IMG/VR virus record: IMGVR_UViG_3300021960_000027
Coordinates: 53,938 to 117,937 of that record
From: a virus
Length of the DNA: 64,000 nucleotides
Reading direction: 5' to 3' (one strand)
Shown here one piece after another: positions 5,982-55,961 of this stretch. The position numbers and the translations under genes were made by a program. The notes below the pieces were generated by a model, which ran no database searches, was not told where the DNA came from, and saw only the letters and a list, made by a program, of their open reading frames with translations. Position 1 is the first letter of the stretch. Every line of letters starts with the position of its first letter.

Positions 5982-8900
5982 GTGTATTTTGTAGTTGAGT
6001 CATTTTCCGTTGACAGAGTAACCAGTGGTTTACTGTCTGGTGTGCCAGTCCCCTCAGTAATTGAGGATGCTGATGGTGGCTACAGATGGTTACTTGTACC
6101 CGATGGTTTAGTCATTACATCTCATTGGGAAAATGCCTATCGATTGGGTGCGATGGGAGTTTTGTCTATTTCTGATGGGCAACTTTTCTTTGCAACGACG
6201 AATTCTGTTATGCAGTCAAGTGGAGGCTTTTCTTTTTCTGTCCCTTCTTCTGAACTGGTTGCTGTTGAGTCACTCCCATCTTCTTCCGATTTAGCGTTGT
6301 ACGAATCTCGCTCTCCGATCATTTCTGAAAGTGGATTTGTTCACCTCCATGCCCATAGCGAATTTTCCCCACTAGATGGATTGGCGACAGTTCAAGAAAT
6401 GGTTGATGAGGCGGTTCGCCACAACCAGTCCGCTATTGCTGTTACCGATCACGGAGTTTGTGCCGCGCATCCAGAGTTGGCAAAGGTTGCTCGTCGCGCT
6501 GGCATCAAGCCGGTGTTTGGAATTGAGGCGAACTTTGTTAACCATCGCAGAGTCAAGGAATCGGTTGGAGATTATTATCACCTCATTCTTTGGGCGCAAA
6601 ACGAGCGTGGGCTAAGGAATCTTTGGAGTGCTTCAAGTGAGGCATACAGAGATGGTTTTTACGGCAGGGCGAGAATGGATTGGGATACTCTTTCTCGCAA
6701 CAACGATGGGGTTATGTGTTCAACAGCATGCCTGCGTGGTCCGCTTTCTGACATGATTTTGGACGGGGATGAAGACGGTGTTCGTGCAAGCCTCTCTCGC
6801 CTACAGGCATTGTTCGGGGATCGCCTTTACGTCGAACTTCACACGAATCAGTTGCCACAACAAAGGGTTGTTAACGAGGCACTGGTGCAGTTGGCGCAGG
6901 AGTTTTCTCTTCCCACTATCGCTGTTGCTGACTCTCATTATGCGTGCCAGTCAGACCACAAAGCCCATAAGGTTTGGATCGCGGCACAGACAAACAAGTC
7001 GCTACAAGATGAAGGTGATTTGTTTGCTGGGGATGAGCATTATCACATTTCTTCAGTAGATGAAATCCGTCAGTCACTGAGTTACTTGCCACAGTCAGTG
7101 GTAGATGAATCTATCTTTCAGACATCTGTTGTCGCTGATCTTTGCAACGCTGGGTTAGAGTCTCGCAAGTCAACTCCTGTCTTTCACCGCAAGGGCGAAG
7201 ACAGTGGTTCAGATAAAGATGCCAGAGTGCTTCGTCAGATGTGTTTGGACGCTTGGTCAAAAGTTGCTGATAAGCCGAATCAGGAAGAGTACGTCGAAAG
7301 ACTGGAAGAAGAACTTGACCTGCTGGTATCAAAAAAATTCTGTGGCTACATCCTTCTTGTTGCCGACTATTGCCGTTGGTGTAAAGAGAACATGATTCTG
7401 ATGGGACCGGGGCGTGGTTCTGCCGCGGGTTCCTTGGTTTGCTATCTCACTGGTATTACTGAGGTTGACCCGATTGATGCGAGGCTTTTGTTTGAGCGGT
7501 TTTTGACTCCGGGCAGAACTTCTCTTCCAGACATTGACTCAGACTTTCCAGCATCTAAGAGGGATGTAATTACTCAGTACATTGTTGATCGCTGGGGAGA
7601 GGATCGTGTTGTACGGGTAGGGACTCATATTCGTCTTGCCAACCGTGGTGTGATGCGCGACCTTGCCCGTGTACTTAGGGACTCTCTTTCGATTGATTAC
7701 CGAGATGTTGATGCTGTCTCAAAGATTATTGAAGACGCTGAGTCTGGTACTGCCGGTCTTGGTTTAAGTTGGGATGAGTTGTGGGGTCAGGTTGGAGATG
7801 AGTTGTCTCCATATCAACTTAAGTATCCAGAATGGTTTGAGTACGCAGACAAGTTTGTAGGTCGATTGAAGTCGTACGGCAAGCACGCGGCTGGGGTTGT
7901 AATTGACCCAGAGCGTTCAATTATTGACCGTCTTCCCCTTCGTGGTGGGGAAAGTGAACAACCAATTACTGAATTTGCGATGGAAGATTTAGAGGAACTT
8001 GGGTACGTCAAGTTTGACCTGCTGACTCTTCGTACTCTGGACACAATTCAGGTGTGTTTGGATTCAATTCGTGAAGACGAAAAACTTTCGTTAGGTTCAC
8101 CTAACATTTACGAATGGAACGAAGAATACAACGACCCTCAAGTTTGGGACATGCTGTGTGAGGGAGAGACGCTTGGCGTTTTTCAAATCGAAACATCTGC
8201 TGGCACGAAACTGACAAAGAGGTTCAAGCCACGTTCGATTGATGACCTCTGCGCCATTCTCACGTTGGTACGACCCGGACCGATTAGGTCTGGACTAACC
8301 GAAACCTACTTGTCTAGGAGAAGTGGCTCTGAACCAGTTCTCTCAATGCACCCACTGTTGGACAACGTTTTGGATAAGACGTATCAAACAATGATTTATC
8401 AAGAGGACATCATGGCTGTCTGCCGAACTCTTGGTGGTTACACGACCGAAGAGGCAGATGAAGTACGTTCAATTCTTGGCAAGAAAAAGGTGGACAAGGT
8501 CGAATCAGAGGGTCGGCGTTTCATCAGTCGTTGTGTAGAGAATGGCGTTGAGTCAGATATTGCAATTCGTCTTTGGGATCAAATGCAAGAGTTTGCTCGC
8601 TATGCGTTCAACAGATCACACTCATGGTCATACGCTCTTCTTGCTTACTGGACTGCGTGGCTCAAGTGTCATTATCCAGTTCACTTCAGCGCGGCGGTTT
8701 TGTCTACTGTTAAAAAAGAGCGCATTCCACAGTTTGTAGAAATGACTCGCAGAATGGGTTATCAGGTTCTTCCCCCAGACATCAACGAGTCAAAAGACGG
8801 GTTCACAATTAGTGCTGACCGTATGTCGATTAGGTACGGACTTGATTCAGTTAAGAATGTTGGCTCTTCCGCAATGCAGGCAGTTTTGGTTGGTCAACCT

Positions 8901-9623
8901 TACGAATCAATGGATGATTTTTTGGAGCGAAAGGGTCGTGCCTGCCACATGGGGCATGTTGAGTTGCTTGCCCAACTGGGTGCGTTTGACAAAATCAGCG
9001 GAATGCATCGCGCACAATTAGAGCAGTGGCTTAGTGATATTCGCTCTGGTAAATCGAAGGATTGTGCGTGGAAAGATGAATCAGTTACTGGTGCGCCAAA
9101 CGATTTGCCATGTACGTTTGACTGGGCAACTGAGGTTCGTATCGGTAAATCTGGTAAGCCATTGAAGACAAAGCCAGTGCCAAAGCGGTGCGGTAAAACT
9201 TGCCGAAATTACACTGAGCGTTCTGATTCAGAAATGCCAGAAAATGTTCCAGTTCATTCTGATGCTTTGATTCGTAATCGTGAGATGGACATGCTTGGCG
9301 TGTATTTGTCTAGCACTCCGTTTGATGATGTTGATAATGAAGTTAGATCATCCGTTGTTACAGCCCACCAGTTGGAGTCTCTTCCAACTGGAACCTACAT
9401 CACTCTCGGAATTGTTACCGCTGTCCGCAAGAGGAACGATAAGGCAAACCGGCAAATGGCTTTTGTTGATATTTTGACTGAGCAGGGAACGTTGTCTACT
9501 GTCACCTTTTCGGGTGAGTGGGCGAGGTATCATGGGGACATTGTTGTTAGCAAAATGATGCTGGCAAGAGTTAAGACGAACAAGCGTGGAACACAAATTA
9601 TTGATGTTGCACCAATCATTTGA
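5982..9623 (+). CDS. dnaE: DNA polymerase III alpha subunit
   Basis: PHP domain FVHLHAHSEFSPLDG and TDHG, GRGSAAGSLV, catalytic PDIDSD, KHAAGVVI, KFDLL, YAFNRSH, C-terminal OB fold. Start GTG 5982 chosen from the SD (track start 5922). Confidence 0.96.
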   Translation: MYFVVESFSVDRVTSGLLSGVPVPSVIEDADGGYRWLLVPDGLVITSHWENAYRLGAMGVLSISDGQLFFATTNSVMQSSGGFSFSVPSSELVAVESLPSSSDLALYESRSPIISESGFVHLHAHSEFSPLDGLATVQEMVDEAVRHNQSAIAVTDHGVCAAHPELAKVARRAGIKPVFGIEANFVNHRRVKESVGDYYHLILWAQNERGLRNLWSASSEAYRDGFYGRARMDWDTLSRNNDGVMCSTACLRGPLSDMILDGDEDGVRASLSRLQALFGDRLYVELHTNQLPQQRVVNEALVQLAQEFSLPTIAVADSHYACQSDHKAHKVWIAAQTNKSLQDEGDLFAGDEHYHISSVDEIRQSLSYLPQSVVDESIFQTSVVADLCNAGLESRKSTPVFHRKGEDSGSDKDARVLRQMCLDAWSKVADKPNQEEYVERLEEELDLLVSKKFCGYILLVADYCRWCKENMILMGPGRGSAAGSLVCYLTGITEVDPIDARLLFERFLTPGRTSLPDIDSDFPASKRDVITQYIVDRWGEDRVVRVGTHIRLANRGVMRDLARVLRDSLSIDYRDVDAVSKIIEDAESGTAGLGLSWDELWGQVGDELSPYQLKYPEWFEYADKFVGRLKSYGKHAAGVVIDPERSIIDRLPLRGGESEQPITEFAMEDLEELGYVKFDLLTLRTLDTIQVCLDSIREDEKLSLGSPNIYEWNEEYNDPQVWDMLCEGETLGVFQIETSAGTKLTKRFKPRSIDDLCAILTLVRPGPIRSGLTETYLSRRSGSEPVLSMHPLLDNVLDKTYQTMIYQEDIMAVCRTLGGYTTEEADEVRSILGKKKVDKVESEGRRFISRCVENGVESDIAIRLWDQMQEFARYAFNRSHSWSYALLAYWTAWLKCHYPVHFSAAVLSTVKKERIPQFVEMTRRMGYQVLPPDINESKDGFTISADRMSIRYGLDSVKNVGSSAMQAVLVGQPYESMDDFLERKGRACHMGHVELLAQLGAFDKISGMHRAQLEQWLSDIRSGKSKDCAWKDESVTGAPNDLPCTFDWATEVRIGKSGKPLKTKPVPKRCGKTCRNYTERSDSEMPENVPVHSDALIRNREMDMLGVYLSSTPFDDVDNEVRSSVVTAHQLESLPTGTYITLGIVTAVRKRNDKANRQMAFVDILTEQGTLSTVTFSGEWARYHGDIVVSKMMLARVKTNKRGTQIIDVAPII

Positions 9624-9637
9624 GATAGGAGAACACG

Positions 9638-10750
9638 ATGGCTTCTTCGGCAAAGCAAAAGGCACTTGAGGCTTTTATGGCTAAGGCAAGAAAGACGTAC
9701 GGAGAGGAAACTTTTGTTCTGTCGCCAACGGTGACTGCTTACGATGTCATCCCGACTGGTTCAATCACTTTGGATTACCACTTGTCTGTTGGTGGATGGA
9801 CTGTTGGTCGGTTGCATGAAGTTTGGGGAGCAGAGGGTGTTGGCAAAACAACTTTGTGCTTGCTTTCTGTTGCAGAGGCTCAGAAGAAGTTCCCTGACAA
9901 GATTGTTGCTTGGATTGATGTCGAATACCGACTTGATAAGGCATGGGCGGTAAGTCACGGAGTTGATTTGGAACGCCTTCTGCATGTTCAACCAAAGGAT
10001 GCAGAGGATGTCGCAGACCAAGTTAAAGACCTTTGCCGTTCTGAACTTGTTTCACTTATCGTTGTCGACTCCATTGGGGCGATGATTCCCGAGCGAGAAA
10101 AAGAGAAGGACGCTGGAGACGCTGTTGTTGGTCGGCAGGCTCAGATTGTTACCCGAATGGTAAAGATCGCGGCAGGCGTTGCCTCCGAAACGCAGACAAC
10201 AATCATCTTTATCAATCAGGTTCGTGCGAATGTTGGGGGGTATGGTTCACCCACTACAACAGGTGGAGGGCATGCGCTCAAGCACTGCACAACAACCAAG
10301 TTGATGGTTAAGCGTCAGGGTGGTATGTCGCCAATGAGCGCAAAAATTGAGGGTGAAGATCGAATTGTTGGTCATCATATTGCAGTCGACATCCAGCGCA
10401 ACTCAGTTGCTCCAGCCTACCGAGTAGCAACCTTTCCTCTCATTCATGTTGCTACCGACAAGTTCGGTCCAGTTGGGGTTGATGATGCTGATGAAGCGAC
10501 AACAATCGGGTTAAAGACTGGAATTATTCAGCAGGCAGGTGCTTGGTACACCAACACTATTAGCGGTGAGCGCGTGCAGGGTAGGGAGTCTGTAGTTGAG
10601 TCTTTGCGTAACGACCGAGATTTGATTAAGGCTGTACGCAAGCGTGCATTAGCCCTTGTTGCTGGAGAGGTAGAGGTCTTCGATGACTATCAATCTCAAC
10701 TTGATGAGTTAGAAGATGATGACGAAGGGGAAGTCATTGAGTCTGATTAA
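9638..10750 (+). CDS. recA: RecA-like recombinase
   Basis: IPTGSITLD, Walker A GAEGVGKTT, IVVDS, FINQVR, TTGGHALK-like loop, QQAGAWY. Confidence 0.96.
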   Translation: MASSAKQKALEAFMAKARKTYGEETFVLSPTVTAYDVIPTGSITLDYHLSVGGWTVGRLHEVWGAEGVGKTTLCLLSVAEAQKKFPDKIVAWIDVEYRLDKAWAVSHGVDLERLLHVQPKDAEDVADQVKDLCRSELVSLIVVDSIGAMIPEREKEKDAGDAVVGRQAQIVTRMVKIAAGVASETQTTIIFINQVRANVGGYGSPTTTGGGHALKHCTTTKLMVKRQGGMSPMSAKIEGEDRIVGHHIAVDIQRNSVAPAYRVATFPLIHVATDKFGPVGVDDADEATTIGLKTGIIQQAGAWYTNTISGERVQGRESVVESLRNDRDLIKAVRKRALALVAGEVEVFDDYQSQLDELEDDDEGEVIESD

Positions 10751-18395: not shown

Positions 18396-18427
18396 CCTGT
18401 CGTTGCTTTAATTACAGCAACTAAGAA
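18396..18427 (+). promoter_or_regulatory. candidate late promoter CCTGTC-N20-TAAGAA
   Basis: One of six similar sites upstream of structural or head-region genes. Confidence 0.55.
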
Positions 18428-43296: not shown

Positions 43297-43370
43297 CCTG
43301 TCGTCAATGCTTTCTTGGCCTACTAAGTAGTGTCAGTCACTGTCTTGTGATTGATTTCAACGACTAAGTA
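43297..43370 (+). promoter_or_regulatory. two tandem candidate late promoters
   Basis: CCTGTC-N21-TAAGTA (43297-43329) and ACTGTC-N20-TAAGTA (43339-43370); both contain ACTAAGTAG. Confidence 0.6.
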
Positions 43371-43399: not shown

Positions 43400-44203
43400 A
43401 TGACAGAGAATCGAAAGAATTCAGCCATCCGGTCGATGGTCAATGCTAAAAATCCTCGCATTGCCTCGCTCCGGCTTGAGTTTGAGCGCAATCAAGAGAA
43501 TATGCGTCGTGTTCAGCGCGAGGAAGACGCAAAGATGAATCACCTCTTTGCCACCAAGATGACTCCTTACGTTCCTCACGCTCACCACACAGATGCAACC
43601 GACTGGATTGATGACTTGTCTACACTCGGCAAGAGTGATGGTCAGATTCATCAGTTGGCGAAGGCCGAGGCAACAGATTGGTTTAAGCGTGTTGCTTCTT
43701 TTGTGAAAGAAGAAAAGGATGAGTTCGCCGTACAGCGAGATGGTTATGCCCGCGTATGGTCAAGCCAGTTTGGATTTGAGGCAGAACTGGCTAAGTCGGC
43801 ATTCATCGATCAGGTCAATCACCTTTCTTGGGCAGAGTCACATGTAGATGAAGTTTTGGCTTCACGCAAGACATCTGCTCCGATTGGAAAGCGCAAGCAC
43901 CTATTGCTTACGCAAGACATCAAAAACAAACTTCCATCTTTGTACGCTCAAGACGGTAAGGGTGACAATGCGATTGCCTACGTCAAGTTCTTTAGCCCAA
44001 TTAGTGACTGGACTTGGTACGCAACCGAATTTGATGGAGAAGACACCTTTTTTGGTCTAGTCGTTGGGCACTTCCCAGAACTTGGATACTTCTCTCTTGG
44101 CGAATTGGAATCACTGGAAGTAAACGGCATGCCTGCCGTTGAGCGTGACATGTACTGGAGTCCAATGACTATTGGTGAAATTAAGAAGGAGCATGGGCTG
44201 TGA
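43400..44203 (+). CDS. head-region protein fused to a DUF2958-like domain
   Basis: VKFFSP...WTWYATE...FFGLV...ELGYFSLGEL...ERD after an ASRKTS linker. Confidence 0.75.
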   Translation: MTENRKNSAIRSMVNAKNPRIASLRLEFERNQENMRRVQREEDAKMNHLFATKMTPYVPHAHHTDATDWIDDLSTLGKSDGQIHQLAKAEATDWFKRVASFVKEEKDEFAVQRDGYARVWSSQFGFEAELAKSAFIDQVNHLSWAESHVDEVLASRKTSAPIGKRKHLLLTQDIKNKLPSLYAQDGKGDNAIAYVKFFSPISDWTWYATEFDGEDTFFGLVVGHFPELGYFSLGELESLEVNGMPAVERDMYWSPMTIGEIKKEHGL

Positions 44204-46554
44204 CCGATCTTTGGGACTACATTCCTGACACACCACAACCAAGGCCAACAAACATGATGAAAGAACGTCATCGTGTTATTGCAGTCGAATCAGAGCAAGA
44301 CGCAGAGGGTGGCGAATACTACGTCCATATTGGTAACGAAAGTGGCTATCCAAAAATCGGTCCGTGGGGACCGTACGCAACTGAAGAAATGGCAAATGAA
44401 GTTCGCGATCAGTTTGAGGGCAAGTGGGGCGCACCGGGTGGCTTTGTCGTCAAGAAGAGCGGAAGCATTTCTTCTTGGGTTCCTTCAATTAAGGCAACTG
44501 CTTCTGGCGAGTTCCAGTCTTGGACTCGCGAATATGATTTGTTTACCGTTTCTGTTTCTGCGGTAAACCAAAAGTCGAATGTTCACGATGGCTATCTGGT
44601 GTCTGCTCGTTGGAAGGCTAACCAACAGCACCTTGGTACTGTCGGGGCAGACGTTGGTGATGGTGAAGTTTACCATGACCTAAAAACTGCTATTTCTGCT
44701 GTCGAAGATTTGATGGCGAGTTATGGTGCAATCCCAATTTCTCCAGAAAAAGGAAAAGTTTCAATGGCACGACGTATTCGACGCATGGCAGACGAAGGTT
44801 TTGGACCGGACGCAGATAGTCAGTCTGGTCATGCAGAGTCACAACTTGATGATGTTGAGGTTGATACCGCAACGGAGACATTTGAGATGGGCTGGACTCA
44901 GGATGATCCTGAGGGCGCAGATGAACTTGCTGATGAAGACGAAGTCGGTCCGTTTGAGGCTTCTCGTAAGACAGCGTCGCCAAAGTATCCAAATATCAAT
45001 GTTGCTCTTGCCGGTGAAGACGGCAACGCTTTTGCAATCCTTGGTCGTGTTCAGACAGCCCTTCGTCGGGGCGGTGTGGACAAGGCAGAGATTGATGCTT
45101 TTATGGCTGAAGCAATGAGCGGTGACTACGATCACCTGTTGCAGACGGTCATGCAGTGGGTTGATGTTTGGGGCAGTGCTGAGGCTTCCAAGCGTCGTCA
45201 TTCTGCGCTAGAGGTTGGCGATAATGCGATGGATTGGCTACTTGAGTGCGATAGTTGTGGGCTAGATTTAACTGAAGATCATGCTCAGTTCTACGACAGC
45301 CCAGTTCGTATCATTAATGATACGAGGAACGAATACGGCTGGACGTTCCCAGAAGGTAAGCCAACCAGTTCAAATGGCTGGGAGGTAGATGCATTTTGTA
45401 GGTCTTGTTCTGAAGATTTGGGATACACCGCTTCTCGCAAGAAAGCCCGTACCGCATCTGTTCGCAAGACCGCTTCTCGTCCGTTGTACGAAATTGCAGA
45501 CGAGATTTATCGCGATTGGAAGAATGTTAACTACGGTGCAAAGCCGTACCTTGACGCAATGATGTCGCTTGACTCAATCAATGACATGTATTATGCAGAC
45601 ACCGCATACTCAGTTGTTGCATACTTCTTGTCAAACGCTTCTTCTTGGAAGGGCGAGACGGCAAAGCGTGTTAAGGCTGAGTTGAAGTCGATGATGAAGA
45701 AGACTGGTTCTCGTAAGACTGCTTTGAATTTCGATGATTTAAACGCAGACGATGTTTCTTCAGAGGATGAAGCAACTCAACTTGCAATCGAATGGCAAAA
45801 TTCTTGGGGAGGGGAAGACTTAAGTTGGGGAGAATGGTCAGACCAAGCCAGTTTCTTTGAGGAACTTGTTGATAAGTTTCCAAGCCTTCGCGAAGAGTGG
45901 GAAGAGAATGGCATTGTCGGTACTGCTTCTCGTAAAGAATCCCGTAAGACTGCTCGTCTTTACCTAACAGCCAGTGACCGTGCGTCGTTGAAGTCAGTCC
46001 CTAATGGAATTCCAGTTGTCATTGAAGATCAACCAATTAAAGGTTTCTCGTTTGTGTCAAGCGCACACAATGGAAGGCCGATTGGCTTGGTGAGCAATGC
46101 TTCTCTTCGTGTTCGTTCAGAATACGGTTACGAGGGTGATGAGGATGGCATGAAGCCTGCCGGAGCCGCGCCTCAAGTTCCAACTGAGGGCGTTGACGAA
46201 GACCCATTTGAAATCTCTGACGAAGAGTGGGTGTATGAGCGCAACAAGGCTCAGGATGATGCAATTATGCGTGGGGCAAAGCGTCGCCGCGCTTCTCGTA
46301 AGGTTGCTGAAGTCGAAGACCTCAGCGGAGAAATTGATCCACGCACTGGCAAACCGTATGAATGCTATGAGAGCGGTCGGGGTAATTGCAGTGGCAAGTT
46401 GCAATACTGCGACAAGTTAGTCCGCTGTGACAAGCATTGTGATGATTTCTATGACAGAATGGAAGACATCAATCGCCGTTACCCAGACTCAGATGTTGCC
46501 CCAGATTGGTTTGACCCAATGAATGCTGGCGAACGCTGGAACGACGATTACTGA
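44200..46554 (+). CDS. modular polyprotein with repeated ASRKTA-type linkers
   Basis: 784 aa; GEDGNAFAILG module, CxxC Zn ribbon, YGAKPYLDAM module and Cys-rich end, separated by basic linkers. Confidence 0.75.
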   Translation: MTDLWDYIPDTPQPRPTNMMKERHRVIAVESEQDAEGGEYYVHIGNESGYPKIGPWGPYATEEMANEVRDQFEGKWGAPGGFVVKKSGSISSWVPSIKATASGEFQSWTREYDLFTVSVSAVNQKSNVHDGYLVSARWKANQQHLGTVGADVGDGEVYHDLKTAISAVEDLMASYGAIPISPEKGKVSMARRIRRMADEGFGPDADSQSGHAESQLDDVEVDTATETFEMGWTQDDPEGADELADEDEVGPFEASRKTASPKYPNINVALAGEDGNAFAILGRVQTALRRGGVDKAEIDAFMAEAMSGDYDHLLQTVMQWVDVWGSAEASKRRHSALEVGDNAMDWLLECDSCGLDLTEDHAQFYDSPVRIINDTRNEYGWTFPEGKPTSSNGWEVDAFCRSCSEDLGYTASRKKARTASVRKTASRPLYEIADEIYRDWKNVNYGAKPYLDAMMSLDSINDMYYADTAYSVVAYFLSNASSWKGETAKRVKAELKSMMKKTGSRKTALNFDDLNADDVSSEDEATQLAIEWQNSWGGEDLSWGEWSDQASFFEELVDKFPSLREEWEENGIVGTASRKESRKTARLYLTASDRASLKSVPNGIPVVIEDQPIKGFSFVSSAHNGRPIGLVSNASLRVRSEYGYEGDEDGMKPAGAAPQVPTEGVDEDPFEISDEEWVYERNKAQDDAIMRGAKRRRASRKVAEVEDLSGEIDPRTGKPYECYESGRGNCSGKLQYCDKLVRCDKHCDDFYDRMEDINRRYPDSDVAPDWFDPMNAGERWNDDY

Positions 46555-46570
46555 TTCCGAGAGGAAAATA

Positions 46571-49153
46571 ATGAGTGACCTTTGGAACGCGGCAAGCATT
46601 GATTATGAGAAAGAGTCCCGTGATGCGTTGATTTCAAACGCTCGCGTGGCATGTGCAGAACATTTTGTTTTTGCATCATCTGCCTCTTCTAGCGAAGAGT
46701 TTCAAGATCGTCTTGCTTTGGTTGCACCGCAAATTGAAAAGAAAGTTTTAGCATCCACTATCTCTGATGCTTCTATGTTTCCCGTTGTTCACGCGGCTGT
46801 GCTGGAGTCACTAGAAGAGGATTTTTCTATCCTTCTTGCTGACCGTGAGGCTTCAATGAAGAAGGGTGCCCCGTTCGCTGGATATTCCGACTTTGACGAG
46901 TGTGTTCGCAAGAATGCTGACAAGGATGATCCAAAGGCGTACTGCGGTTCTATCAAGAACAAGGTAGAAAAGAAGTCTTCTCGTAAGTGGGCATCACTTC
47001 CCAAGTTGGCAGAAAATGCTCCTGACCATTTCGGTCCGCACCCAAATTCTCAGGCTGGTGACGCGATTAGCCAACTTGACGACGTTGATGTTGAGTCTGC
47101 TCCAGAGAACTCAAACGAAGGCTGGGTCAATGAGGATGCAAAGGCAGAACAGCGTAAGGATGCCGGTCGTAAAACCGCGGCTCCGTTTGCCGATCTTGTT
47201 CGCATTTTTGAAACGGACAGCGGTGAAACTGTTGATGTGTACAGCAACGGAATTAAGTATTGCAACGGCTGTCGTACCAAATTTATGGACTACACCGATG
47301 ATGAGGTGAAGTCCCATATTTGTGGTGATAACTACGGCACCGCATCTTGGGAGCGTTTGGATGATGACGGTCTTGCTCCTGCTTGGGAGCGGATGGCTAG
47401 TCGTAAGACCGCTGAAAGAAACTGGGTGGGCGATAAGTACGTTAGTGGTCGCGATGTAAAAGACATTGCGAAGGACATTCGCTCTGAGATTAAGAGTCTG
47501 ATTGCTCAGGGAAAGATTCCCGGCGCGCCTGTCAAGTATTCCGTTAAGATTGATCGTTACTCAATGGGTCAATCAATCGACATCAATATTATGAACTGGG
47601 ATGAATACTCCCATGTTTATGAAGTCGACAAGAGCGGTTTCAGCGGACGCGAATATTCTCAAGAGGCAGGCAAAGTCAAGGAAATCCTTAACTCTATTTT
47701 GGAAAGCCATCTTTTTGATAATAGCGACATAATGACTGACTATTGGAATGTCAACTTCTATGGTTTCGTAAACTTTGATAGTTGGACATCCGGTTCAGAA
47801 GTTGTTGTCATTGACGAAAATGGTCAAAAGGTGGCTAGTCGTAAGACTTCTTCTGTTTATCTTACCAACGTAGGTTTTGTTGGTGGCATCGGAAGCAACA
47901 CTGCAAGGGGATACGATAAAAACGGAGATGAAATTGTTTTCCGTCTTTCAGATTCTGATGCAGAAAAACTTTCTGGGGTTTTGTTGAGCGATCAGGCCAT
48001 GAATTTTTCTGGTGTTGAGATTGATGAAGAAGACATTATTTCAATTCGTAAGGCTTCTTCTCGTCGTGTTCGGGAGGGTGAATCTTTTGGACCGGAAGGT
48101 CGTTATTCGGTAGAGCGTATTGATGGGGATCAGGCGTACGTTTACGACCACTTAAATCGTTCCTACTTCTGGCGAGCGGTTGACCAAATTGACCCAGATT
48201 GGGGCGCAGAAACATCTTCTTGGTATGGCGGTAGGGGTGCTTCTCGTCGCAAAGTAGCGAAAAGAATACTTCTTCCACATAACCAACCTCCTGTGCTTCC
48301 CCATCACCTTGCGGTAAGTGAAAATCCTTTTGTTAAAAAAGACGAAGAGGATGAAGAAGAGGACGAAAAAGAAAGCGACACTGAAGAAGAGGTAGCAGAT
48401 ACTGCCGAAGAAAAGACTGAAGATAAGGTTGATTCTGAGTCAGACGCTGGTGCTGAATCTGAGCCGGTTGCTGAAGAGGTTGTTGCCGAAGAGCAAGAGC
48501 CTGCACCTGTTGCAGAAGAGGTTGATCCTCAAAACATGACTGCCGGTGAGCGCGTTACGGTGAACTACACGATGTCTGGCGGTAACGCTGGAAGTGTCGA
48601 TGCAATGTTCATCCGTGAAGACAAGAATGTGTTCTACTTCAACGGTCCGACTGGCGAGTTTGGTGTGGCTAACACGGGTTCTGGATGGCAGGATGCCGAT
48701 GGCAACTCGTTCTCCTTTTCTTCGCAAGACGGTGTCTCAGAAGATCAGTCTTTTGAGATGAAGCCGAAAGAAACTGATTCGGTTGAGTCTGAAGAGAAGA
48801 CTGCTGGCAAGAAAACCGCAATGCCTTCTCCTGCTGAGATGGGGGTAGAGGTTGGGGATATTTTTGTAAGCAGTTGGGGCTATGACCAAACCAATGTTGA
48901 TTTTTATCAGGTCACTCGTTTGACCGCTCAAAGTGTTGAGGTTCGTGCCATTGCCTCCGAGTTGGTTTCTGGCGATGGTTGGAGTGGGACAGTAGTTGCA
49001 GTTCCCAATGCCTTTCTTGAAGGATTGCAGGCGCAAAAGTTTGTGAGCAGATTGCGACACGGCTATCAAGGAGAGCCATCAATTAAGGTTGGTTATCAAA
49101 GGTACGCGTGGCTTTGGGATGGTAAGCCTAAAACCATGACAAGTTACGCGTGA
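46571..49153 (+). CDS. modular polyprotein with repeated ASRKTA-type linkers (LPD29-like and SWGYDQTN modules)
   Basis: ATG 46571 after GAGGA SD; PFAGYSDFDECV motif, CxxC, KYSVK...SIDI...DNSDIMTDY, acidic tract, GDIFVSSWGYDQTNVDFYQV. Confidence 0.75.
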   Translation: MSDLWNAASIDYEKESRDALISNARVACAEHFVFASSASSSEEFQDRLALVAPQIEKKVLASTISDASMFPVVHAAVLESLEEDFSILLADREASMKKGAPFAGYSDFDECVRKNADKDDPKAYCGSIKNKVEKKSSRKWASLPKLAENAPDHFGPHPNSQAGDAISQLDDVDVESAPENSNEGWVNEDAKAEQRKDAGRKTAAPFADLVRIFETDSGETVDVYSNGIKYCNGCRTKFMDYTDDEVKSHICGDNYGTASWERLDDDGLAPAWERMASRKTAERNWVGDKYVSGRDVKDIAKDIRSEIKSLIAQGKIPGAPVKYSVKIDRYSMGQSIDINIMNWDEYSHVYEVDKSGFSGREYSQEAGKVKEILNSILESHLFDNSDIMTDYWNVNFYGFVNFDSWTSGSEVVVIDENGQKVASRKTSSVYLTNVGFVGGIGSNTARGYDKNGDEIVFRLSDSDAEKLSGVLLSDQAMNFSGVEIDEEDIISIRKASSRRVREGESFGPEGRYSVERIDGDQAYVYDHLNRSYFWRAVDQIDPDWGAETSSWYGGRGASRRKVAKRILLPHNQPPVLPHHLAVSENPFVKKDEEDEEEDEKESDTEEEVADTAEEKTEDKVDSESDAGAESEPVAEEVVAEEQEPAPVAEEVDPQNMTAGERVTVNYTMSGGNAGSVDAMFIREDKNVFYFNGPTGEFGVANTGSGWQDADGNSFSFSSQDGVSEDQSFEMKPKETDSVESEEKTAGKKTAMPSPAEMGVEVGDIFVSSWGYDQTNVDFYQVTRLTAQSVEVRAIASELVSGDGWSGTVVAVPNAFLEGLQAQKFVSRLRHGYQGEPSIKVGYQRYAWLWDGKPKTMTSYA

Positions 49154-49799: not shown

Positions 49800-50315
49800 T
49801 TGATGTCTGCTCTTCGTGAAGGCTCAAGTGCCTCGTATGTCGGCTACGAAGCGGATGGCATTGAGGTTGGTGATCGGTGTCTAGTTCTTTCTGCTGAAAA
49901 AACGCAGTCTTTTGTGCGTTGGACGACTGGTTCAAAAATTGGTCAGTACGAAAATGTTCATAACGAAGACTTGGTTGCCGATCAAGCACCTAACAGGTAC
50001 GAGGACGAGTTCACATTTGAGTCGTACAGCAACCGGATTGTTAACACCGCTTGTTTGGAGGTAATTAACAAGAAGGGCGAGCGAGGTTTGTTCGCCGCGC
50101 TGTCTAGTGAGGGTCACATGGACTCTCTGCGGATTCAAACTCAATCTGCTATTTCGGCTGTGATTGATGTACTGTCGGAAGACCCTGTATGGTTGGATAT
50201 CCAATCAAATTTGGGTGTTGAAGAGGCTCGTTCTTTTATGTTTTTTGCCGTTAAAAAGTCGGTTGAAGAACTTTCTAATTTGATGATTGAGGCTCAGGAG
50301 AATGGCGATGAATAA
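49800..50315 (+). CDS. hypothetical protein
   Basis: 171 aa; SH3-like N-terminal pattern. Confidence 0.7.
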   Translation: MMSALREGSSASYVGYEADGIEVGDRCLVLSAEKTQSFVRWTTGSKIGQYENVHNEDLVADQAPNRYEDEFTFESYSNRIVNTACLEVINKKGERGLFAALSSEGHMDSLRIQTQSAISAVIDVLSEDPVWLDIQSNLGVEEARSFMFFAVKKSVEELSNLMIEAQENGDE

Positions 50316-51132
50316 CGGGGAAATTGAACAGAACCACAATGGAACGTGGGATGTGGTTTTTGATGATGGGGAACGGATTGTTGGTCTTTCTTCTCTGTCG
50401 GATGCAATCGCCTTTGCGTACGTTGAGGATGAAACTTCTTTGCAATCATTCGCGATTAGTCTCCCAGAGGGGGCAATGTCAGACTTCCAGTTGCCAAACG
50501 GTCGTTGGCTACGTCAGGGCACTGAAGTAAGCATTCAGGGTGTCCGTGGTCGATTTGTGTTTCAGCACGCACGGAATAATGAAGTAACTGTTTTCGGTGG
50601 CACTCAGGGTCGTGAAATGTTCCGAACCTTCACTGCTGACCGCATCAAGACTGTTCATTCAAAAGACAAGGTGCGTAGGAACATTGATCGCAAGAACTCC
50701 ATGTGGCGTTCTGCACATCAAATGCCAGACCCATCGGTGATTGCCCATTGCCCATTTTGTGGTTCTGGGGATTTAGTTGCTCGCTCAGACGGAAATACTG
50801 AGTGCATTTACTGCAACCGTTTCTTTTCTGTCAGTGAACAGCCAGAGTTTAACGCAGAACCCGGTCATCCTTCTGAGGGGTTGATTGATGGTCAAGAAGA
50901 TAGCGATTCTCCTGTTGTTGAAGAATTGCAATCTGCTCCTGCGTTTGTTGCGCCAGATGAAACTCAAAATGAAGAGCCACAGGATGTTGAAAACCCTGTA
51001 GTGCAGGCACAGTCGTCCAAGTTTATTACCGTCAGCGGAGCCAAACTGAGCAAGATGGACTACATTAAACACTTGGCGTTCCGTCATGGCGATAGGGAGA
51101 ATGTCATCAGGAATCTGAGTGGAGGCGAGTAA
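50302..51132 (+). CDS. Zn-ribbon-containing protein before the portal
   Basis: HCPFCGSG...CIYC; AGGAG SD before ATG 50302. Confidence 0.7.
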   Translation: MAMNNGEIEQNHNGTWDVVFDDGERIVGLSSLSDAIAFAYVEDETSLQSFAISLPEGAMSDFQLPNGRWLRQGTEVSIQGVRGRFVFQHARNNEVTVFGGTQGREMFRTFTADRIKTVHSKDKVRRNIDRKNSMWRSAHQMPDPSVIAHCPFCGSGDLVARSDGNTECIYCNRFFSVSEQPEFNAEPGHPSEGLIDGQEDSDSPVVEELQSAPAFVAPDETQNEEPQDVENPVVQAQSSKFITVSGAKLSKMDYIKHLAFRHGDRENVIRNLSGGE

Positions 51133-51134
51133 CA

Positions 51135-53234
51135 ATGAGTTTTGCCGACGAAGCCGAGTCGGTAAGAAGGCTTTTTTCGACTGCCGGTCACATCGATCCT
51201 TCTGACCCAAATCGTGATGTAATCTCCCAAATGGGGTTGAACCGCTCTGTCAACATGAGGAAGAGCGGTGTTGCTAATTCTATTTCCCTTGCAACTGGTC
51301 GCCCGACAGACCCGATGTTTTACTGGCGTAATGCCAACCTTCCGTACAACATTTGGGAAAAAGATGAGTTGAGCAAGGTTCGCTCCTTTTGCCGAATGCT
51401 GTATTTGCTTCATCCAGTAATTGCGTCTGCGATTGACATCTTCTCAAAGTATCCGCTGGTTGGCATGGAGATTCTCTCTCCAAAAGACGACAAGATTACA
51501 GACTTTTACAACGAACTATTTTTCAATGAACTTGATTACGAAGAGTTCCTTGTTGACGTTGGTCGTGAGTATTGGACTGCTGGAGAAGCGTGGGCGTTTG
51601 GAACGTTCAATGAGTTGCTTGGCGTTTGGGAGTCTGATGAGTTGCTCCAGCCAGATGACATCAAGGTTGTCCGATCCCCATTCTTGCGTGAGCCACGCTA
51701 TGAGATGCGTCTTCCCCAGCACATTCGGGATATCATTCGTGATCGTAAACCGGAGTGGGAATACAAGCAGTTAATTACTGCCTACCCTGAGATGGCATCA
51801 CTTGCCTCTCTTGGTGAGTTGACTGATGAAGACGACCCTCGCGGTTGGATGCCGGTCAGCAACACTCTTCTGTATCACTTGAAGTTTAAGGGCGACACGT
51901 TCCATGATCGTGGTGTTCCTATTTTGATGCGAGCATTCCGTTCAGTAATGCAGGAGGAAATGCTGAATGCCGCGCAGGATGCGATTGCCTCACGTTTGTA
52001 CACTCCACTGATTCTTGCAAAACTGGGTGCTTCAGCAGGCGACTTGGGTACAAATGCTCCTTGGATTCCGTCGCAGGCAGACTTGGACGCTTTTAACGAA
52101 TCTCTCAACGCCGCGCTCGCGGCTGATTTCCGAGTAATGACTCACCATTTTGCGGTCAACATGAGCAACGTTTTTGGTCGTGAATCAATGCCTAATCTAA
52201 ACGGAGATTTTGAACGAATTACTGAGCGCATTCTTCAGACGTTTGGTATGTCAAAGACAATGTTGTCCGGTGCAAGTGGTGGTCAAACTTACGCGGCAGA
52301 CGCGTTGAATAGAGATTTGCTTTCACAGTTGCTGGTTACATATCAAAAACGAATTGCACGTTTCTTCAAAAAGCGCGCTGAGGTTGTTGCTGAGGCTCAA
52401 GGTCACTACGACTTTGAGTTGAAGGGTGGTCGACCTATCCCAATTATGGAAGAAGTAATTGAGGTAGACGAAGAAACAGGTAATCAGCGCATTGTTGAAC
52501 AGCCGAAATTACTTGTTCCAGATTTGAAAATTCGTTACATCAATATGCGAGATCAAGACTCGTATCGCCAATTCTTGGAAGCCTTGCGTGCAACTGGTGT
52601 TCCGATTTCTCAGCGTACAAGAATGGTTAATGTGCCAATTAATTTGGACGAAGAAGCAGAGTCTGTTAAGACAGAGCAGGTTACTCAAGCCGTACTTTCG
52701 CAAGAGGCAAGGAAAGAAACTTACCTTGAACTTCGTCGTCGTGGCCTGCCCATTCCTCAAGATTTGATTGATGACTTTATGCCAAGGGTTGACGATTCTA
52801 AATCTGCAACTACTCCAGAAATTCTTCCATCGATTGGCCGAAATGAGCCTGCTCCTACTGTTGGTTTGGTGCCAACAGAAGAGGACTTGGCTTCGGCTGG
52901 TACGGAGGCAACTGGTCCAATTCCAGATGTAGATATGTCGGATGTTGTAATTAAGAATCTCCCACGCAACCGAATGACTCGTCCACGAAACATTGAGGAA
53001 CAGGGCAATACGCCCTATGAAAGTCACGAACAGCGTGCGGGTATGCCAAGGGCATCTTCATTAGACCCTTCTGTTCAAGTAGACCCTATTCTGGTTGATG
53101 GGGAAGAAGTGGCACGAACAGTGATGTCTGCTCCAAATCACATTGGTATGCGGGCGGTTGCTTCCAAAGAATCTTTTTATCTGTATCAGGAGGAAGACGA
53201 AGTGGATGAAGAAAGCGATGAAGCCTCTGATTGA
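51135..53234 (+). CDS. portal protein
   Basis: 699 aa; LY..HPVIASAIDIFSKYP, GEAW, RGVPILMRAFR, TPLILAKLG, recalled from large actinophage portals. Confidence 0.8.
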   Translation: MSFADEAESVRRLFSTAGHIDPSDPNRDVISQMGLNRSVNMRKSGVANSISLATGRPTDPMFYWRNANLPYNIWEKDELSKVRSFCRMLYLLHPVIASAIDIFSKYPLVGMEILSPKDDKITDFYNELFFNELDYEEFLVDVGREYWTAGEAWAFGTFNELLGVWESDELLQPDDIKVVRSPFLREPRYEMRLPQHIRDIIRDRKPEWEYKQLITAYPEMASLASLGELTDEDDPRGWMPVSNTLLYHLKFKGDTFHDRGVPILMRAFRSVMQEEMLNAAQDAIASRLYTPLILAKLGASAGDLGTNAPWIPSQADLDAFNESLNAALAADFRVMTHHFAVNMSNVFGRESMPNLNGDFERITERILQTFGMSKTMLSGASGGQTYAADALNRDLLSQLLVTYQKRIARFFKKRAEVVAEAQGHYDFELKGGRPIPIMEEVIEVDEETGNQRIVEQPKLLVPDLKIRYINMRDQDSYRQFLEALRATGVPISQRTRMVNVPINLDEEAESVKTEQVTQAVLSQEARKETYLELRRRGLPIPQDLIDDFMPRVDDSKSATTPEILPSIGRNEPAPTVGLVPTEEDLASAGTEATGPIPDVDMSDVVIKNLPRNRMTRPRNIEEQGNTPYESHEQRAGMPRASSLDPSVQVDPILVDGEEVARTVMSAPNHIGMRAVASKESFYLYQEEDEVDEESDEASD

Positions 53235-53367
53235 GTGTCCGCTATGCGGTGAGGAATACGATCCCGTTTCTTCCCGCTGGCTCTGCCCCTATTGCCATTT
53301 TAAAGACACATGTTGTGAGGGAGAACCTTGTCCTCAGCCTGTCGATGGTGCTGAAAGTTCGACATAA
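53218..53367 (+). CDS. small Zn-finger protein
   Basis: CPLCG...WLCPYCHFKDTCCEG. Confidence 0.7.
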   Translation: MKPLIECPLCGEEYDPVSSRWLCPYCHFKDTCCEGEPCPQPVDGAESST

Positions 53368-53370
53368 GAG
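53338..53370 (+). promoter_or_regulatory. candidate late promoter CCTGTC-N21-TAAGAG
   Basis: Same motif, ending 5 nt before ATG 53376. Confidence 0.5.
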
Positions 53371-53375
53371 GTGAC

Positions 53376-55961
53376 ATGGCTACCCATTCCAATCACAAAC
53401 ATTCTGGTGTAAACAGCGAACTCTACTGGAAAGCCTTCCCCAATGACAGAGTTAAAACTGTCGATGGGGAAGGAATTGTCGCGTCTGTAAGCGACGGGTT
53501 TGCTCCTGACACAGAAAAATATGAGATTGTTTTATCTGCCGGTGGGGGAGGCGAGTATTCCTCTTCAGAAATTCTTGAGGTGCTTAACAACACTGGGATT
53601 TCTACGTCTGCCTCTGCCCTCCCCGAAAAGTTGTATCACGCAACATGGGAGCCAAATTTTAATGGCATTGTGAACAAGGGTCTTAAGGCAGGTACATACT
53701 TTGCCAACAAACTTGATTACGCAGTCGGATTTGTTGCCATGCGCCCCGGCGAATACAAGGGCATGGTCTGGAAACGTTTCCCAGATAAAGATGGCAATTA
53801 CATAGATTTTCAGGTGCCTGATTACGAGTACCACGACACGATTGCTGTGTTTTCAATTAGGGTAAGCAAGTTAGATAAGTCTCTTATCAAGGAAAGTTGG
53901 GATCATTCCCCGTCTTATTTCCCATCCGACCTTTTGTCGTACACATACGAGGGCGACATTAAGGGCTATGAACTTGATTTTGAGGGGTATTACCATAACC
54001 CTTCTGCACCAACTACTGCATCGCTTCGCACAACCTCGGCACGCACGCATGGACTAGAACTTGCTCCACTTGGAAGTCAGCACACTGCCGCGGATGATTA
54101 TCCAGAGTTAAATGAGATTCTCTGGGATCGACCAGATTTGATTGATGCCGAACCAGTTGGTTCAGGCATGCTGTCCTTGTCTAAGTTGGCTTCTGTACAA
54201 CGCAAGATTGCAATCAGCCCAAAAGAATTTAGGGAGCAGTTTGGGACACCGCACAGGGACTGGCGCAATTCTGACCCGAACAGAACTCCTGCTCAATATC
54301 AAACCGCACAGGAGTTGGTTGATGATCCAAACACCCCTTGGTGGTGGAGAAAAATTGTCGGTCCGGCTGTTGAGCGTTATGAAGAATCGGCTGGCCTTAA
54401 GTACGACATGGTTAATGCGCCATCAAGAGACTGGTGCCGGTTTAGGCGAGATTCACAGTGCTATTACCCACGAAACCTAGATGAGTACGCTACTGCTCAG
54501 GCTGGCTATCCGGTGTGGATTCCAGAGAATCGTGGTCAGTGTCCACGGACTCCTTGGAATTTGCAAAAGCAGTGCGACATGGCAGAACCCGGTCCGAATT
54601 CTCGCGAAAAAGTCGTGTATCCAGATGCAACGATTCCGTGGAGTGCGGGTGGGCAGAGAATTCCGGGCGGTGCCCGTAGAGTTGCTTCCCTGTACAAGTC
54701 TTCGTCTTGGCGTGATGTTCAGGCAAAGGCAAAGCGTATTAGGAAAAATGGATTTGTCAGAATCCTTGCCGTGTCTGGTGGTGTCATCACTGCTCAGGTA
54801 AAGGGCGATAGCAATATCTATGAGACTTCAATAAGTCGTGTTCCCGGCACTACGCAGGTTGCGCTGTGGTCTTGCGGATGCGACTGGTCAACTTATTCTT
54901 GGGGACGTTCTGGTCGCTGGAAGAAGTATGAGGGTCGCATGTGCAGTCATGCACTTGCCGTCATGTATGAGGCTCAGGCGAGAGAAATGTTTGGTGGGGA
55001 ACTCACCAGCGAAAACATCGATCCAAATTGGCTGACACAGAAGCCGGTTCAAGAGCGTCGTACCACTCCCGGCGAGTGGAGACTTGACGTTGCCGCGTCG
55101 CTTGATAGTCACATTGAGGCGATTGATAGTCGTCGTCTTGCAGTTCTTGCTGATACCTCTCTTTCTGACGCAGAGCAGTCAGAGGCGTTGGGGCAACTTG
55201 CCAGCGCATCTTCTATGATGCGCTTGGATCGTGTTGCTATTTTTTCTTCTCCTGTAGAACCACTGGATTCAGTTGGTCAAATCCCCGAATCCGCTGTTGC
55301 ATTGAATTTTCCTGTCCAGTACATGGGGGAGATTTGCACGGTATTGGGTGTTAATCCAGATACCCATACATGCATGTTGTTGGAACACGGCGAGGTTCCC
55401 ACCCACGCATGCAGTCACCCATCTTATGATTCGGCTTCCGGTCTTCGACTTAAGGACGATGCAATTCCTGTTGCTATTGAGGCACGCAAGACAGCAAAAG
55501 ATCAGGTTGTCGAAGATTCTGTTGAGGAAGAGCCGGTTGAGGAAGAGCCTGCTGTTCAATCAGAATCAATGCTTAACGAAGAACCAGAGCCTGCCCTGCC
55601 AGTTGCCGAGGCGTTTGAAGATGGTGACGAATACGCACTAGAGGACGAAAGCCCTGTTGACAAGGCAGATGATATTGAGATGGTTTCTTCTCATGCAAAC
55701 TTGTCTCCCGGCAATCCATCTCTTGAATGGTTGATGAGCGGTTCAAGCAAAACGGGATCAAATGATACGTCTGACATTGCTTCTGCCGCGAAAGACTTTC
55801 TTGCCAAAGTTGCGGTGAGAGAATTCTCTCCCTCAGAGCAGGCAGACATTATTGGTGAAGGGGAAGGGGACAGGGCAAAAAACCTTGATCTTCTACAGAT
55901 TGAGGGAACCCATTACCAATCAATTAGCGACGATCAACAAGACGACCAGTTTCTGTGGTGA
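53376..55961 (+). CDS. multidomain head-region protein with SWIM Zn finger and LYHAT ART-like module
   Basis: KLYHAT...GLK..TYFA; WSCGC...MCSH (SWIM); linkers RTTSART, RKIA, RRVAS, ARKTA; acidic C-terminus. Confidence 0.65.
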   Translation: MATHSNHKHSGVNSELYWKAFPNDRVKTVDGEGIVASVSDGFAPDTEKYEIVLSAGGGGEYSSSEILEVLNNTGISTSASALPEKLYHATWEPNFNGIVNKGLKAGTYFANKLDYAVGFVAMRPGEYKGMVWKRFPDKDGNYIDFQVPDYEYHDTIAVFSIRVSKLDKSLIKESWDHSPSYFPSDLLSYTYEGDIKGYELDFEGYYHNPSAPTTASLRTTSARTHGLELAPLGSQHTAADDYPELNEILWDRPDLIDAEPVGSGMLSLSKLASVQRKIAISPKEFREQFGTPHRDWRNSDPNRTPAQYQTAQELVDDPNTPWWWRKIVGPAVERYEESAGLKYDMVNAPSRDWCRFRRDSQCYYPRNLDEYATAQAGYPVWIPENRGQCPRTPWNLQKQCDMAEPGPNSREKVVYPDATIPWSAGGQRIPGGARRVASLYKSSSWRDVQAKAKRIRKNGFVRILAVSGGVITAQVKGDSNIYETSISRVPGTTQVALWSCGCDWSTYSWGRSGRWKKYEGRMCSHALAVMYEAQAREMFGGELTSENIDPNWLTQKPVQERRTTPGEWRLDVAASLDSHIEAIDSRRLAVLADTSLSDAEQSEALGQLASASSMMRLDRVAIFSSPVEPLDSVGQIPESAVALNFPVQYMGEICTVLGVNPDTHTCMLLEHGEVPTHACSHPSYDSASGLRLKDDAIPVAIEARKTAKDQVVEDSVEEEPVEEEPAVQSESMLNEEPEPALPVAEAFEDGDEYALEDESPVDKADDIEMVSSHANLSPGNPSLEWLMSGSSKTGSNDTSDIASAAKDFLAKVAVREFSPSEQADIIGEGEGDRAKNLDLLQIEGTHYQSISDDQQDDQFLW

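Follow-up and report, generated by a model that had tools for sequence, protein, structure and literature searches.

A recurring Ser-Arg-Lys-Thr-Ala joint between modules of phage head-region polyproteins as a candidate prohead protease site

Introduction

The last 64 kb of one 117,937-bp phage contig (IMG/VR record IMGVR_UViG_3300021960_000027, positions 53,938 to 117,937; hereafter the window, the whole contig being the genome of the phage studied here) carry three consecutive open reading frames (ORFs) on the plus strand, called A, B and C below, which end 2 kb upstream of the portal gene and in which one short basic peptide, typically Ala-Ser-Arg-Lys-Thr-Ala, recurs between stretches of unrelated sequence. 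What reads such a joint? The original prediction for this DNA held that small genes had been captured into head-region polyproteins, which are packaged and then released as effector cargo by a prohead protease cutting at or near RKTA. Here we examine the joint, the modules on either side of it, the protease of the phage and the equivalent proteins of related phages, and find it somewhat better than an even chance that the joints of A, B and C are cut by the phage's own prohead protease of the gp21/assemblin fold, the modules between them being capsid cargo.

Results

The joint peptide and where it occurs

All 12 of the 12 linkers originally listed are present in A, B and C at the coordinates given for them (Table 1), and their consensus can be written as [A/S/G]-S-R-K-T-A-[S/A/G]. 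For counting we defined a strict motif, [AGST][SG]R[KR][TVI][AS], which is observed 7 times in A-C, where 2000 composition-preserving shuffles gave 0.02 on average and never more than 1; the shorter RKT[AS] has 14 occurrences in the six frames of the window, 8 of them in the reading frames of A-C. Over 17 sites serine is written with 5 different codons, arginine with 3, threonine with 4 and alanine with 3, and because the codons of the motif differ at synonymous positions we conclude that conservation acts on the peptide and not on the DNA, as had been proposed. Threonine is replaced by Val or Ile at 3/17 sites, Lys by Arg in proteins of the P0001 type and Arg by Lys in the related genome L009 (both sets are introduced below). 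Two other candidate readings of the repeat were rejected: a DNA-level repeat or recombination site, since the codons vary, and a relic of gene N-termini, since no free-standing gene here begins with the motif.

A simple ORF caller gave 140 ORFs that cover 96% of the genome, and in these the strict motif has 16 hits distributed over only 8 ORFs: A, B and C, two at genome 7832-10470, two at genome 47843-50142 and a scaffold-like protein (genome 13861-15189). The motif-bearing ORFs are therefore three polyprotein clusters and a scaffold-like protein, and the pair at 7832-10470 sits just upstream of the prohead protease gene. Among the 140 ORFs no strict motif was found in polymerase/replication, terminase, portal, tail or fibre proteins. 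The proteome-wide count that had been suggested as a check thus falls out in favour of head-region over replication genes, and supports a restriction of the motif to late or virion-region proteins.

A further type of joint, A-S-M-N, has 3 copies in a 477-amino-acid (aa) ORF at genome 1694-3127; R-V-A-S-M-N is found at residues 307-313 of gp94 of mycobacteriophage I3, and E-A-S-M-K-K stands before the GAPFAGY module of C.

The joints lie at the borders of small modules

PHROG/HMMER matches of A-C to free-standing phage proteins of 70-200 aa begin or end at the linkers. In B, residues 258-323 match phrog_1933 (a 71-position profile) from the ASRKTA at 254-259 onwards, residues 414-500 match phrog_13953 between the double linker at 411-426 and the GSRKTA at 503-508, and residues 739-783 match phrog_6230 downstream of the ASRKVA at 698-703; in C, residues 314-422 match phrog_10415 between ASRKTA and ASRKTS, and residues 762-876 (876-aa numbering) match phrog_37844 downstream of KTAGKKTA. 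The modules first recognised by their GEDGNAFAILG, YGAKPYLDAM and SWGYDQTN strings correspond to the small families phrog_1933, phrog_13953 and phrog_37844, and the one described as DUF2958-like is recovered by Pfam at A 169-255 (E 5e-12). This is the only Pfam domain found in A-C at E ≤ 0.01; nothing was found in B or C, and none of the three ORFs has a recognised peptidase or LPD-type domain at this threshold, leaving a supposed 'LPD29-like' module unconfirmed. The effector or anti-host label fared no better, as DUF2958 is the sole named domain and an anti-host activity has been neither demonstrated nor predicted for any of the modules.

A search with B against 1.84 billion representative sequences by HMMER gave 4090 proteins at E ≤ 0.001, and in the best 150 of these the majority of matches cover B 425-501 or B 259-323 and belong to proteins of 70 to 3586 aa. 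Module Y (B 427-502) accounts for 139 matches within the best 150 of 4090. On their downstream side 91 stop ≤12 residues from the protein end, and on their upstream side 21 lie ≤12 residues from the protein start, a linker-type motif precedes 16, and the other 102 show neither. As just 16/139 have the motif upstream, it is not part of the module Y domain and was added in one subset of the proteins. In the ESM Atlas module Y falls among viral clusters whose members are hypothetical proteins of 75-78 aa. This, together with the small PHROG families, agrees with the view that the modules exist elsewhere as stand-alone small phage genes; capture of the module genes from such free-standing genes is plausible. 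At the SWGYDQTN junction a Met stands directly behind the motif in C and in the homologous polyproteins P0154, P0001 and P0152 (4/5 proteins compared), as if a former start codon had been retained.

We modelled B 405-520 with AlphaFold, using 75 short homologues, and these are the only two linker regions modelled structurally. The model places a confident four-helix core at about residues 425-504 (mean predicted local distance difference test, pLDDT, of 88-98 per 10-residue block), while most of both linkers falls within residues 405-424 and 505-520, predicted as coil with block means of 56-60.

One further match was noted in C, where residues 309-426 (876-aa numbering; window 47447-47800) weakly resemble phrog_1926 (E 3.9e-5), a 1410-position family annotated as 'released from the phage upon host infection', and this we treat as a weak lead only.

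Module turnover in other polyproteins

We next consider metagenomic polyproteins found by homology (P-numbers), which were compared using the core motif [KR][TV]A[GASM] and 2000 shuffles of each sequence. In the metagenomic polyproteins the same SR[KR]TA joints surround different module sets. P0001 (1596 aa) has 12 core motifs against 0.57 expected (0/2000 shuffles), P0002, P0007 and P0010 have counts above all 2000 shuffles, and the counts of P0004, P0066, P0152, P0153, P0154 and P0156 were matched by just 1-10 of the 2000; P0005 is not enriched, with 1 core motif versus 0.16 expected. A peptide-pattern scan of viral contigs detected no relative of B or of P0001.

P0001 holds in one chain the N-terminal module of A, module Y of B, two acidic peptides, and the 'LTNVG...NFSGVEID' and SWGYDQTN modules of C, and P0154 combines the N-terminal module of A with the end module of C. 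Moreover, the N-terminal module of A is the N-terminus of P0001, P0002, P0004, P0066 and P0154, its DUF2958 part matches P0010 359-476, the N-terminus of C (MSDLW...) resembles those of I3 gp94 and P0005, and P0001, P0152 and P0154 all end in the SWGYDQTN module with which C closes. A-B-C thus correspond to one polyprotein chain elsewhere, conserved at its ends and variable in between.

Across 17 polyproteins, 247 pairwise high-scoring segment pairs (HSPs) have 454 internal boundaries, 31% of which lie ≤5 residues from a motif, versus 7% of random positions (maximum 11% in 500 trials), a comparison in which the boundaries are non-independent and the conserved motif may itself shape where alignments end. 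Blocks that these polyproteins share with one another thus tend to break at motifs, which is the module turnover between phages that had been anticipated, and the HSP breaks, the PHROG/HMMER edges and the predicted coil at two linkers all place the linkers at module boundaries.

The other recurring element is an acidic 33-aa peptide of the pattern S-Q-x-G-x-A-x-S-x-L-x-D-V-x-V...G-W, found once each in B and C, and no further protein of the studied genome matches its profile. It is also found in P0001 (two copies), P0004, P0007 (two), P0066, P0154 (two) and P0035, in most cases with a linker on either side, and is a candidate for a capsid-targeting element or a released peptide.

The prohead protease

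The N-terminal part of the 683-aa protease polyprotein (Table 1) matches phrog_2774 and phrog_18299, both head maturation protease families. A model of residues 1-232 (mean pLDDT 69, with disordered ends) superposes on T4 gp21 (PDB ID 5jbl) with Z 10.4 and a root-mean-square deviation of 2.6 Å over 126 residues (VIA re-alignment), and on herpesvirus proteases with Z 5-7. Foldseek alone returned nothing for this model at E ≤ 0.001, the best being T4 gp21 at E 0.033, and a PDB sequence search with the protease domain returned nothing at E ≤ 1. His80, His81, His85 and Ser138 are invariant in 12/12 aligned relatives. The profile matches and the predicted model together indicate that the phage encodes a prohead protease of the gp21/assemblin fold. 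The same domain (genome 10805-11500) has a C148-x2-C151...C162-x-H164 set that is likewise invariant in 12/12 relatives and, judging by sequence, may be a zinc site inserted in a gp21-type fold.

Downstream of the protease domain lie a weak SprT-like match (E 2e-5, just under the Pfam cut-off) and a GNAT domain. The nearest named relatives are Cluster C mycobacteriophages, at about 51% identity (I3 and Cali among many), along with Rhodococcus phage E3 and Gordonia phages. Twelve related viral contigs have 871-1827 aa of varying passengers fused to the protease, such as DUF7178, NUDIX and many GNATs; in the six protease polyproteins scanned with Pfam there is also an L5 gp82-like passenger. Pfam at E ≤ 0.001 finds no zincin in six relatives' protease polyproteins or in I3 gp94, so that the N-terminal prohead protease is the sole peptidase seen in common. 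In one of the related genomes, L013 (6771-14725), the protease is fused to a 1827-aa chain with several GNAT-type matches, which is followed by an 824-aa protein.

The core motif in structural head proteins

We compared the head proteins with those of I3 (L003) and of related phages and viral contigs (L005, L006, L007, L008, L009, L011, L013 and L015; the studied genome is L001). A [KR]-[TV]-A site is found directly behind the protease domain in L006, L007, L008 and L009, and about 40 residues from the C-terminus of the scaffold in the studied phage (as ASRRTA), L005 and I3, all three of whose scaffolds end in a similar hydrophobic tail. The protein encoded behind the portal gene (53376-55961) has such a site three residues ahead of its conserved C-terminal domain (...SP(S/E)EQ...) in 4/4 phages compared, as KVA here, RTA in I3 gp102, KTA in L009 and KVA in L006. 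The cargo motif is in this way shared with structural head proteins, ASRRTA occurring in the scaffold-like protein and [KR]-[TV]-A in the post-portal protein. In I3 itself the giant head-region proteins gp94 and gp102 have 5 [KR][TV]A[GASM] each against about 0.4 expected (0/2000 shuffles), and the I3 portal, major capsid protein (MCP) and two further I3 proteins have none. The MCP of the studied phage (genome 19467-20456) shares 59% identity with the I3 MCP. In 6/6 MCP sequences [RK]-hydrophobic-Ala-Lys is conserved at residues 13-17, which may or may not be a related site. The only PDB match of the MCP is 6wkk (phage G gp27), which is uninformative on MCP processing because the match excludes the N-terminus, and the available text of the phage G paper (PMC12484599) reports no cleavage sites.

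Gene starts, neighbouring genes and promoter-like sites

The GTG start of B overlaps the stop of A (GTGA). C was initially listed from 46523 with 876 aa, but most likely starts at the ATG at 46571, as this is preceded by a GAGGAA Shine-Dalgarno sequence and the database version has 860 aa; the listed start is thus probably 48 nt early. Three ORFs separate the polyproteins from the portal gene, and one of them (50287-51132, 281 aa) has DUF7246 (E 8e-11) together with a weak Lar-like zinc-ribbon match below the cut-off (E 0.0025). When the region was compared by blastn with 50,697 phage records, the single match, of 108 nt at 73%, was to Mycobacterium phage ScoobyDoobyDoo (Cluster C); it covers window 46861-46968, in the GAPFAGY-DF-CV...AYCGSIK module of C. 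In relatives the GAPFAGY module lies within the protease polyprotein (L005, P0156) or is N-terminal (P0152).

A promoter-like motif, CTGTC-N19-23-TAAG[TA], is found at 8 plus-strand sites of the genome, where 1.3 would be expected (at most 4 in 200 mononucleotide shuffles), and each site is intergenic and 2-72 nt upstream of a gene start. Three polyprotein operons are preceded by the motif, that of A (two copies) and those beginning at genome 7832 and 47843, and so are the post-portal gene, genes of 497 and 125 aa, and the gene of an 804-aa GNAT protein after the terminase. As far as sequence can tell, the polyproteins may therefore be co-expressed with one head gene or more, the post-portal gene being the one seen here.

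Table 1. Coordinates of the polyprotein ORFs, their linkers and associated features (window positions unless marked as genome; residue numbers are those of the ORF named)
Feature	Position	Strand	Remarks
ORF A	43400..44203	+	267 aa: 'handle' module about 47-145, ASRKTS 154-159, DUF2958 169-255
Linker ASRKTS	43859..43876	+	A 154-159
ORF B	44200..46554	+	784 aa, about 7 modules, 5 linker sites
Acidic 33-aa peptide, copy 1	44818..44916	+	B 207-239; profile match
Linker ASRKTA	44959..44976	+	B 254-259, directly before phrog_1933-type module (B 258-323)
Double linker ASRKKARTASVRKTAS	45430..45477	+	B 411-426, directly before module Y (B 427-502); predicted coil, pLDDT 56-60
Linker GSRKTA	45706..45723	+	B 503-508, directly behind last helix of module Y
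Double linker ASRKESRKTA	45925..45954	+	B 576-585
Linker ASRKVA	46291..46308	+	B 698-703, before phrog_6230-type C-terminal module
ORF C	46571..49153	+	Most likely 860 aa, about 7 modules; initially listed with start 46523, 876 aa
Linker SSRKWA	46976..46993	+	Behind GAPFAGY...AYCGSIK module of C
Acidic 33-aa peptide, copy 2	47048..47146	+	C; profile match
Linker AGRKTA	47162..47179	+	Behind acidic peptide of C
Linker ASRKTA	47396..47413	+	Before phrog_10415-type module of C
Linker ASRKTS	47834..47851	+	Before 'LTNVGF...NFSGVEID' module, common to P0001, P0002, P0007, P0152-P0154
Linker ASRRKVA	48239..48259	+	In C
Linker KTAGKKTA	48797..48820	+	Then MPSP and SWGYDQTN module of C
Portal protein	51135..53234	+	phrog_2833, E 4e-147; strict motif absent
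K-V-A site, post-portal protein (53376-55961)	55806..55814	+	3 residues before conserved FSPSEQ... C-terminal domain
Prohead protease polyprotein	genome 10805-12856		683 aa; residues 1-212 match phrog_2774 (E 7e-67) and phrog_18299 (E 9e-22)
Promoter-like motif, two copies	43298..43369	+	Upstream of A
Promoter-like motif, other sites	18397-18426, 53339-53369; genome 7782, 25433, 47345, 47785	+

Discussion

Our results describe a joint that is sequence-specific, and such a joint needs a reader, considering that it is kept where the modules differ, that it lies in coil between modules, and that the protease, the scaffold and the post-portal protein carry it too. The simplest such reader is a protease, since the site is framed by small residues, Lys and Arg replace each other freely, Thr gives way only to Val or Ile, and a Met can follow the motif. 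In the scheme we favour, A, B and C would be one head-module polyprotein unit, encoded in this phage by three coupled ORFs where some relatives have one long protein, in which small, independently folding modules are linked by a disordered joint. The chains would be produced late, alongside the head genes, and incorporated into the prohead, for which the N-terminal module of A, the SWGYDQTN end of C and the acidic 33-aa peptide are candidate handles. The prohead serine protease would then cut the joints, most likely directly after the Ala of [KR]-[TV]-A, and the mature capsid would contain separate small proteins able to exit with the DNA. We place the cut after Ala because [KR]-[TV]-A is all that the conserved head proteins have in common, and the bond between the preceding Ala and Ser might be the scissile one instead. 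Incorporation, cleavage, the scissile bond, ejection and a role in the host are each what we infer from this arrangement.

Several observations weigh against this scheme. Our literature search found no proteomic, virion N-terminal or expression data for the studied phage or its cultured relatives. T4 gp21, the closest solved protease, cuts after Glu, and given this rule a basic-Thr-Ala site is without experimental precedent in the gp21 fold beyond the Ala-Ser rule of herpesviruses, whose assemblins cut between Ala and Ser. The N-terminal site of the MCP has a hydrophobic residue, not Thr, before its Ala. Enrichment of the bare core is uneven among relatives, being strong in L009, L015, L005 and L013 and absent in L008 (3 versus 2.4 expected) and L011 (4 versus 1.9), and I3 gp103 has 2 core motifs versus 0.67, which is not significant. 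The expectation that motifs fall in disordered linkers is borne out for the two linker regions predicted as coil, to which the model-based support extends, but the motif is not strictly limited to linkers, as a copy, RRRTAS (residues 175-180), lies inside the protease domain in a partly conserved R-x-T-A-S loop (175-181). The dependence among HSP boundaries belongs here as well.

The alternative that survives best, although we think it unlikely, is that the joints are never cut, and serve as conserved basic patches within very acidic chains, binding to DNA, to the inside of the capsid or to some partner, the chains acting as intact polyvalent proteins. The net charge of B is -55 and that of C -65, and against this background the joints are basic; cleavage itself has been deduced from the sequences; and some polyvalent proteins are packaged uncut, for instance the N4 virion RNA polymerase (cited in the text of PMC5512222). 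A binding patch, however, leaves much unexplained: the frame of small residues, with Ser before the basic pair and Thr/Val-Ala followed by Ser/Gly/Ala behind it; the combination of free Lys/Arg exchange with Thr changing to Val or Ile only; the exact placement at module ends and the Met behind the motif; and the same core beside the protease domain and in the scaffold tail.

We give slightly less credit again to cutting by another protease, be it a packaged passenger peptidase (the SprT-like zincin, or a C-terminal Cys-His domain) or a host protease acting after ejection. The weak SprT-like match (E 2e-5) lies in the protease gene itself, the dibasic RK pair would suit some host proteases, and autoprocessing of polyvalent proteins by zincins was predicted in the text of Iyer et al. 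2017 (PMC5512222). This reading has to contend with the lack of any zincin (E ≤ 0.001) in the 6 relatives' protease polyproteins or I3 gp94, though most of them retain the motif, and with the location of the motif behind the protease domain and at the scaffold C-terminus, both of them usual sites of prohead protease action.

That the motif is a modification site, with Thr phosphorylated or Lys/Arg acetylated or ADP-ribosylated by nearby enzymes such as GNATs, is very improbable and was rejected: a GNAT is fused to the protease here and L013 has many GNAT repeats, but no single acceptor residue is conserved, given the replacement of Thr at 3/17 sites, of Lys by Arg in P0001-type proteins and of Arg by Lys in L009. 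Chance, low complexity or a recent internal DNA duplication deserves almost no credence, for apart from the shortness of the motif nothing speaks for it, while shuffles never come near the observed count, the codons differ, the flanking modules are unrelated and the motif recurs in unrelated genomes.

Returning to the prohead protease as reader, a broader proposal is that one cleavage code, [S]-[R/K]-[R/K]-[T/V]-Ala, operates across the lineage from this aquatic phage to Cluster C, such that any small phage gene inserted between two joints becomes capsid cargo and A-B-C is the split form of one plug-and-play chain whose end modules are fixed and whose middle is freely exchangeable; this we offer tentatively, believing it to be more probably wrong than right. 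If the joints are cut, dozens of small 'hypothetical proteins' of this lineage would be virion cargo delivered at infection, which would give small phage proteins a time and place of action, and new cargo could be recruited by fusion behind a five-residue joint. The main value of the idea is that it is testable, since the protease clade and a related [K/R]-T-A-G motif occur in cultured Cluster C mycobacteriophages of M. smegmatis; in the literature we found neither this motif described nor any account of how polyproteins are processed in Bixzunavirus-type phages.

How does the system compare with those already known? In African swine fever virus the structural polyproteins pp220 and pp62 are cut at Gly-Gly-X, so that there too, in a double-stranded DNA virus, virion components arise from polyproteins by cutting at a short motif that recurs along the chain, although protease class, motif and host domain differ and there is no evidence of common descent. 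The polyvalent proteins, as described in the text of Iyer et al. 2017 (PMC5512222), are similar in carrying many unrelated small domains per chain (2-15, with about 7 each in B and C), in their portal/head gene context, and in their predicted capsid packaging and extensive domain shuffling. They differ in that the paper proposes processing by their own zincin domains, and the word 'linker' is absent from its main text. A-C have a fixed joint peptide that also marks the protease, scaffold and post-portal proteins, and as to the effector or LPD-type domains characteristic of polyvalent proteins (zincin MPTase, GNAT, ParB-like and others), the one Pfam hit (E ≤ 0.01) in A-C is DUF2958, in A, the GNAT and the weak SprT match being in the separate protease gene.

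Closer in logic are the internal proteins IPI-III and Alt of T4 and the inner-body or ejection proteins of phiKZ and SPN3US, in which a protease of the gp21 fold acts on a short consensus found both in cargo and in structural head proteins, and the cargo exits with the DNA. The motifs of the T4/phiKZ type end in Glu (L/I-x-E; S/A/G-x-E) and serve mainly for propeptide removal or cuts into few pieces, whereas in the studied phage a basic-Thr-Ala motif divides many unrelated, otherwise free-standing modules; the T4/phiKZ analogy drawn by the original prediction thus applies to the logic and not to the motif. Herpesvirus assemblins have the same fold (Z 5-7) and maturation and release sites of the form hydrophobic-x-Ala, cut before Ser, and they share with the phage an Ala before and a Ser, Gly or Ala after the presumed cut, as well as the placing of sites, one where the protease domain ends and another close to the C-terminus of the scaffold, the differences being that the upstream residues here are basic, not hydrophobic, and that the substrates are far more numerous. 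With a consensus of S-R-K-T-A, and not x-x-Glu, the system would work like the T4 IP/Alt family under another cleavage rule, and if true this would mean a non-Glu specificity among phage gp21-type proteases, nearer to the Ala-Ser rule of the herpesviruses.

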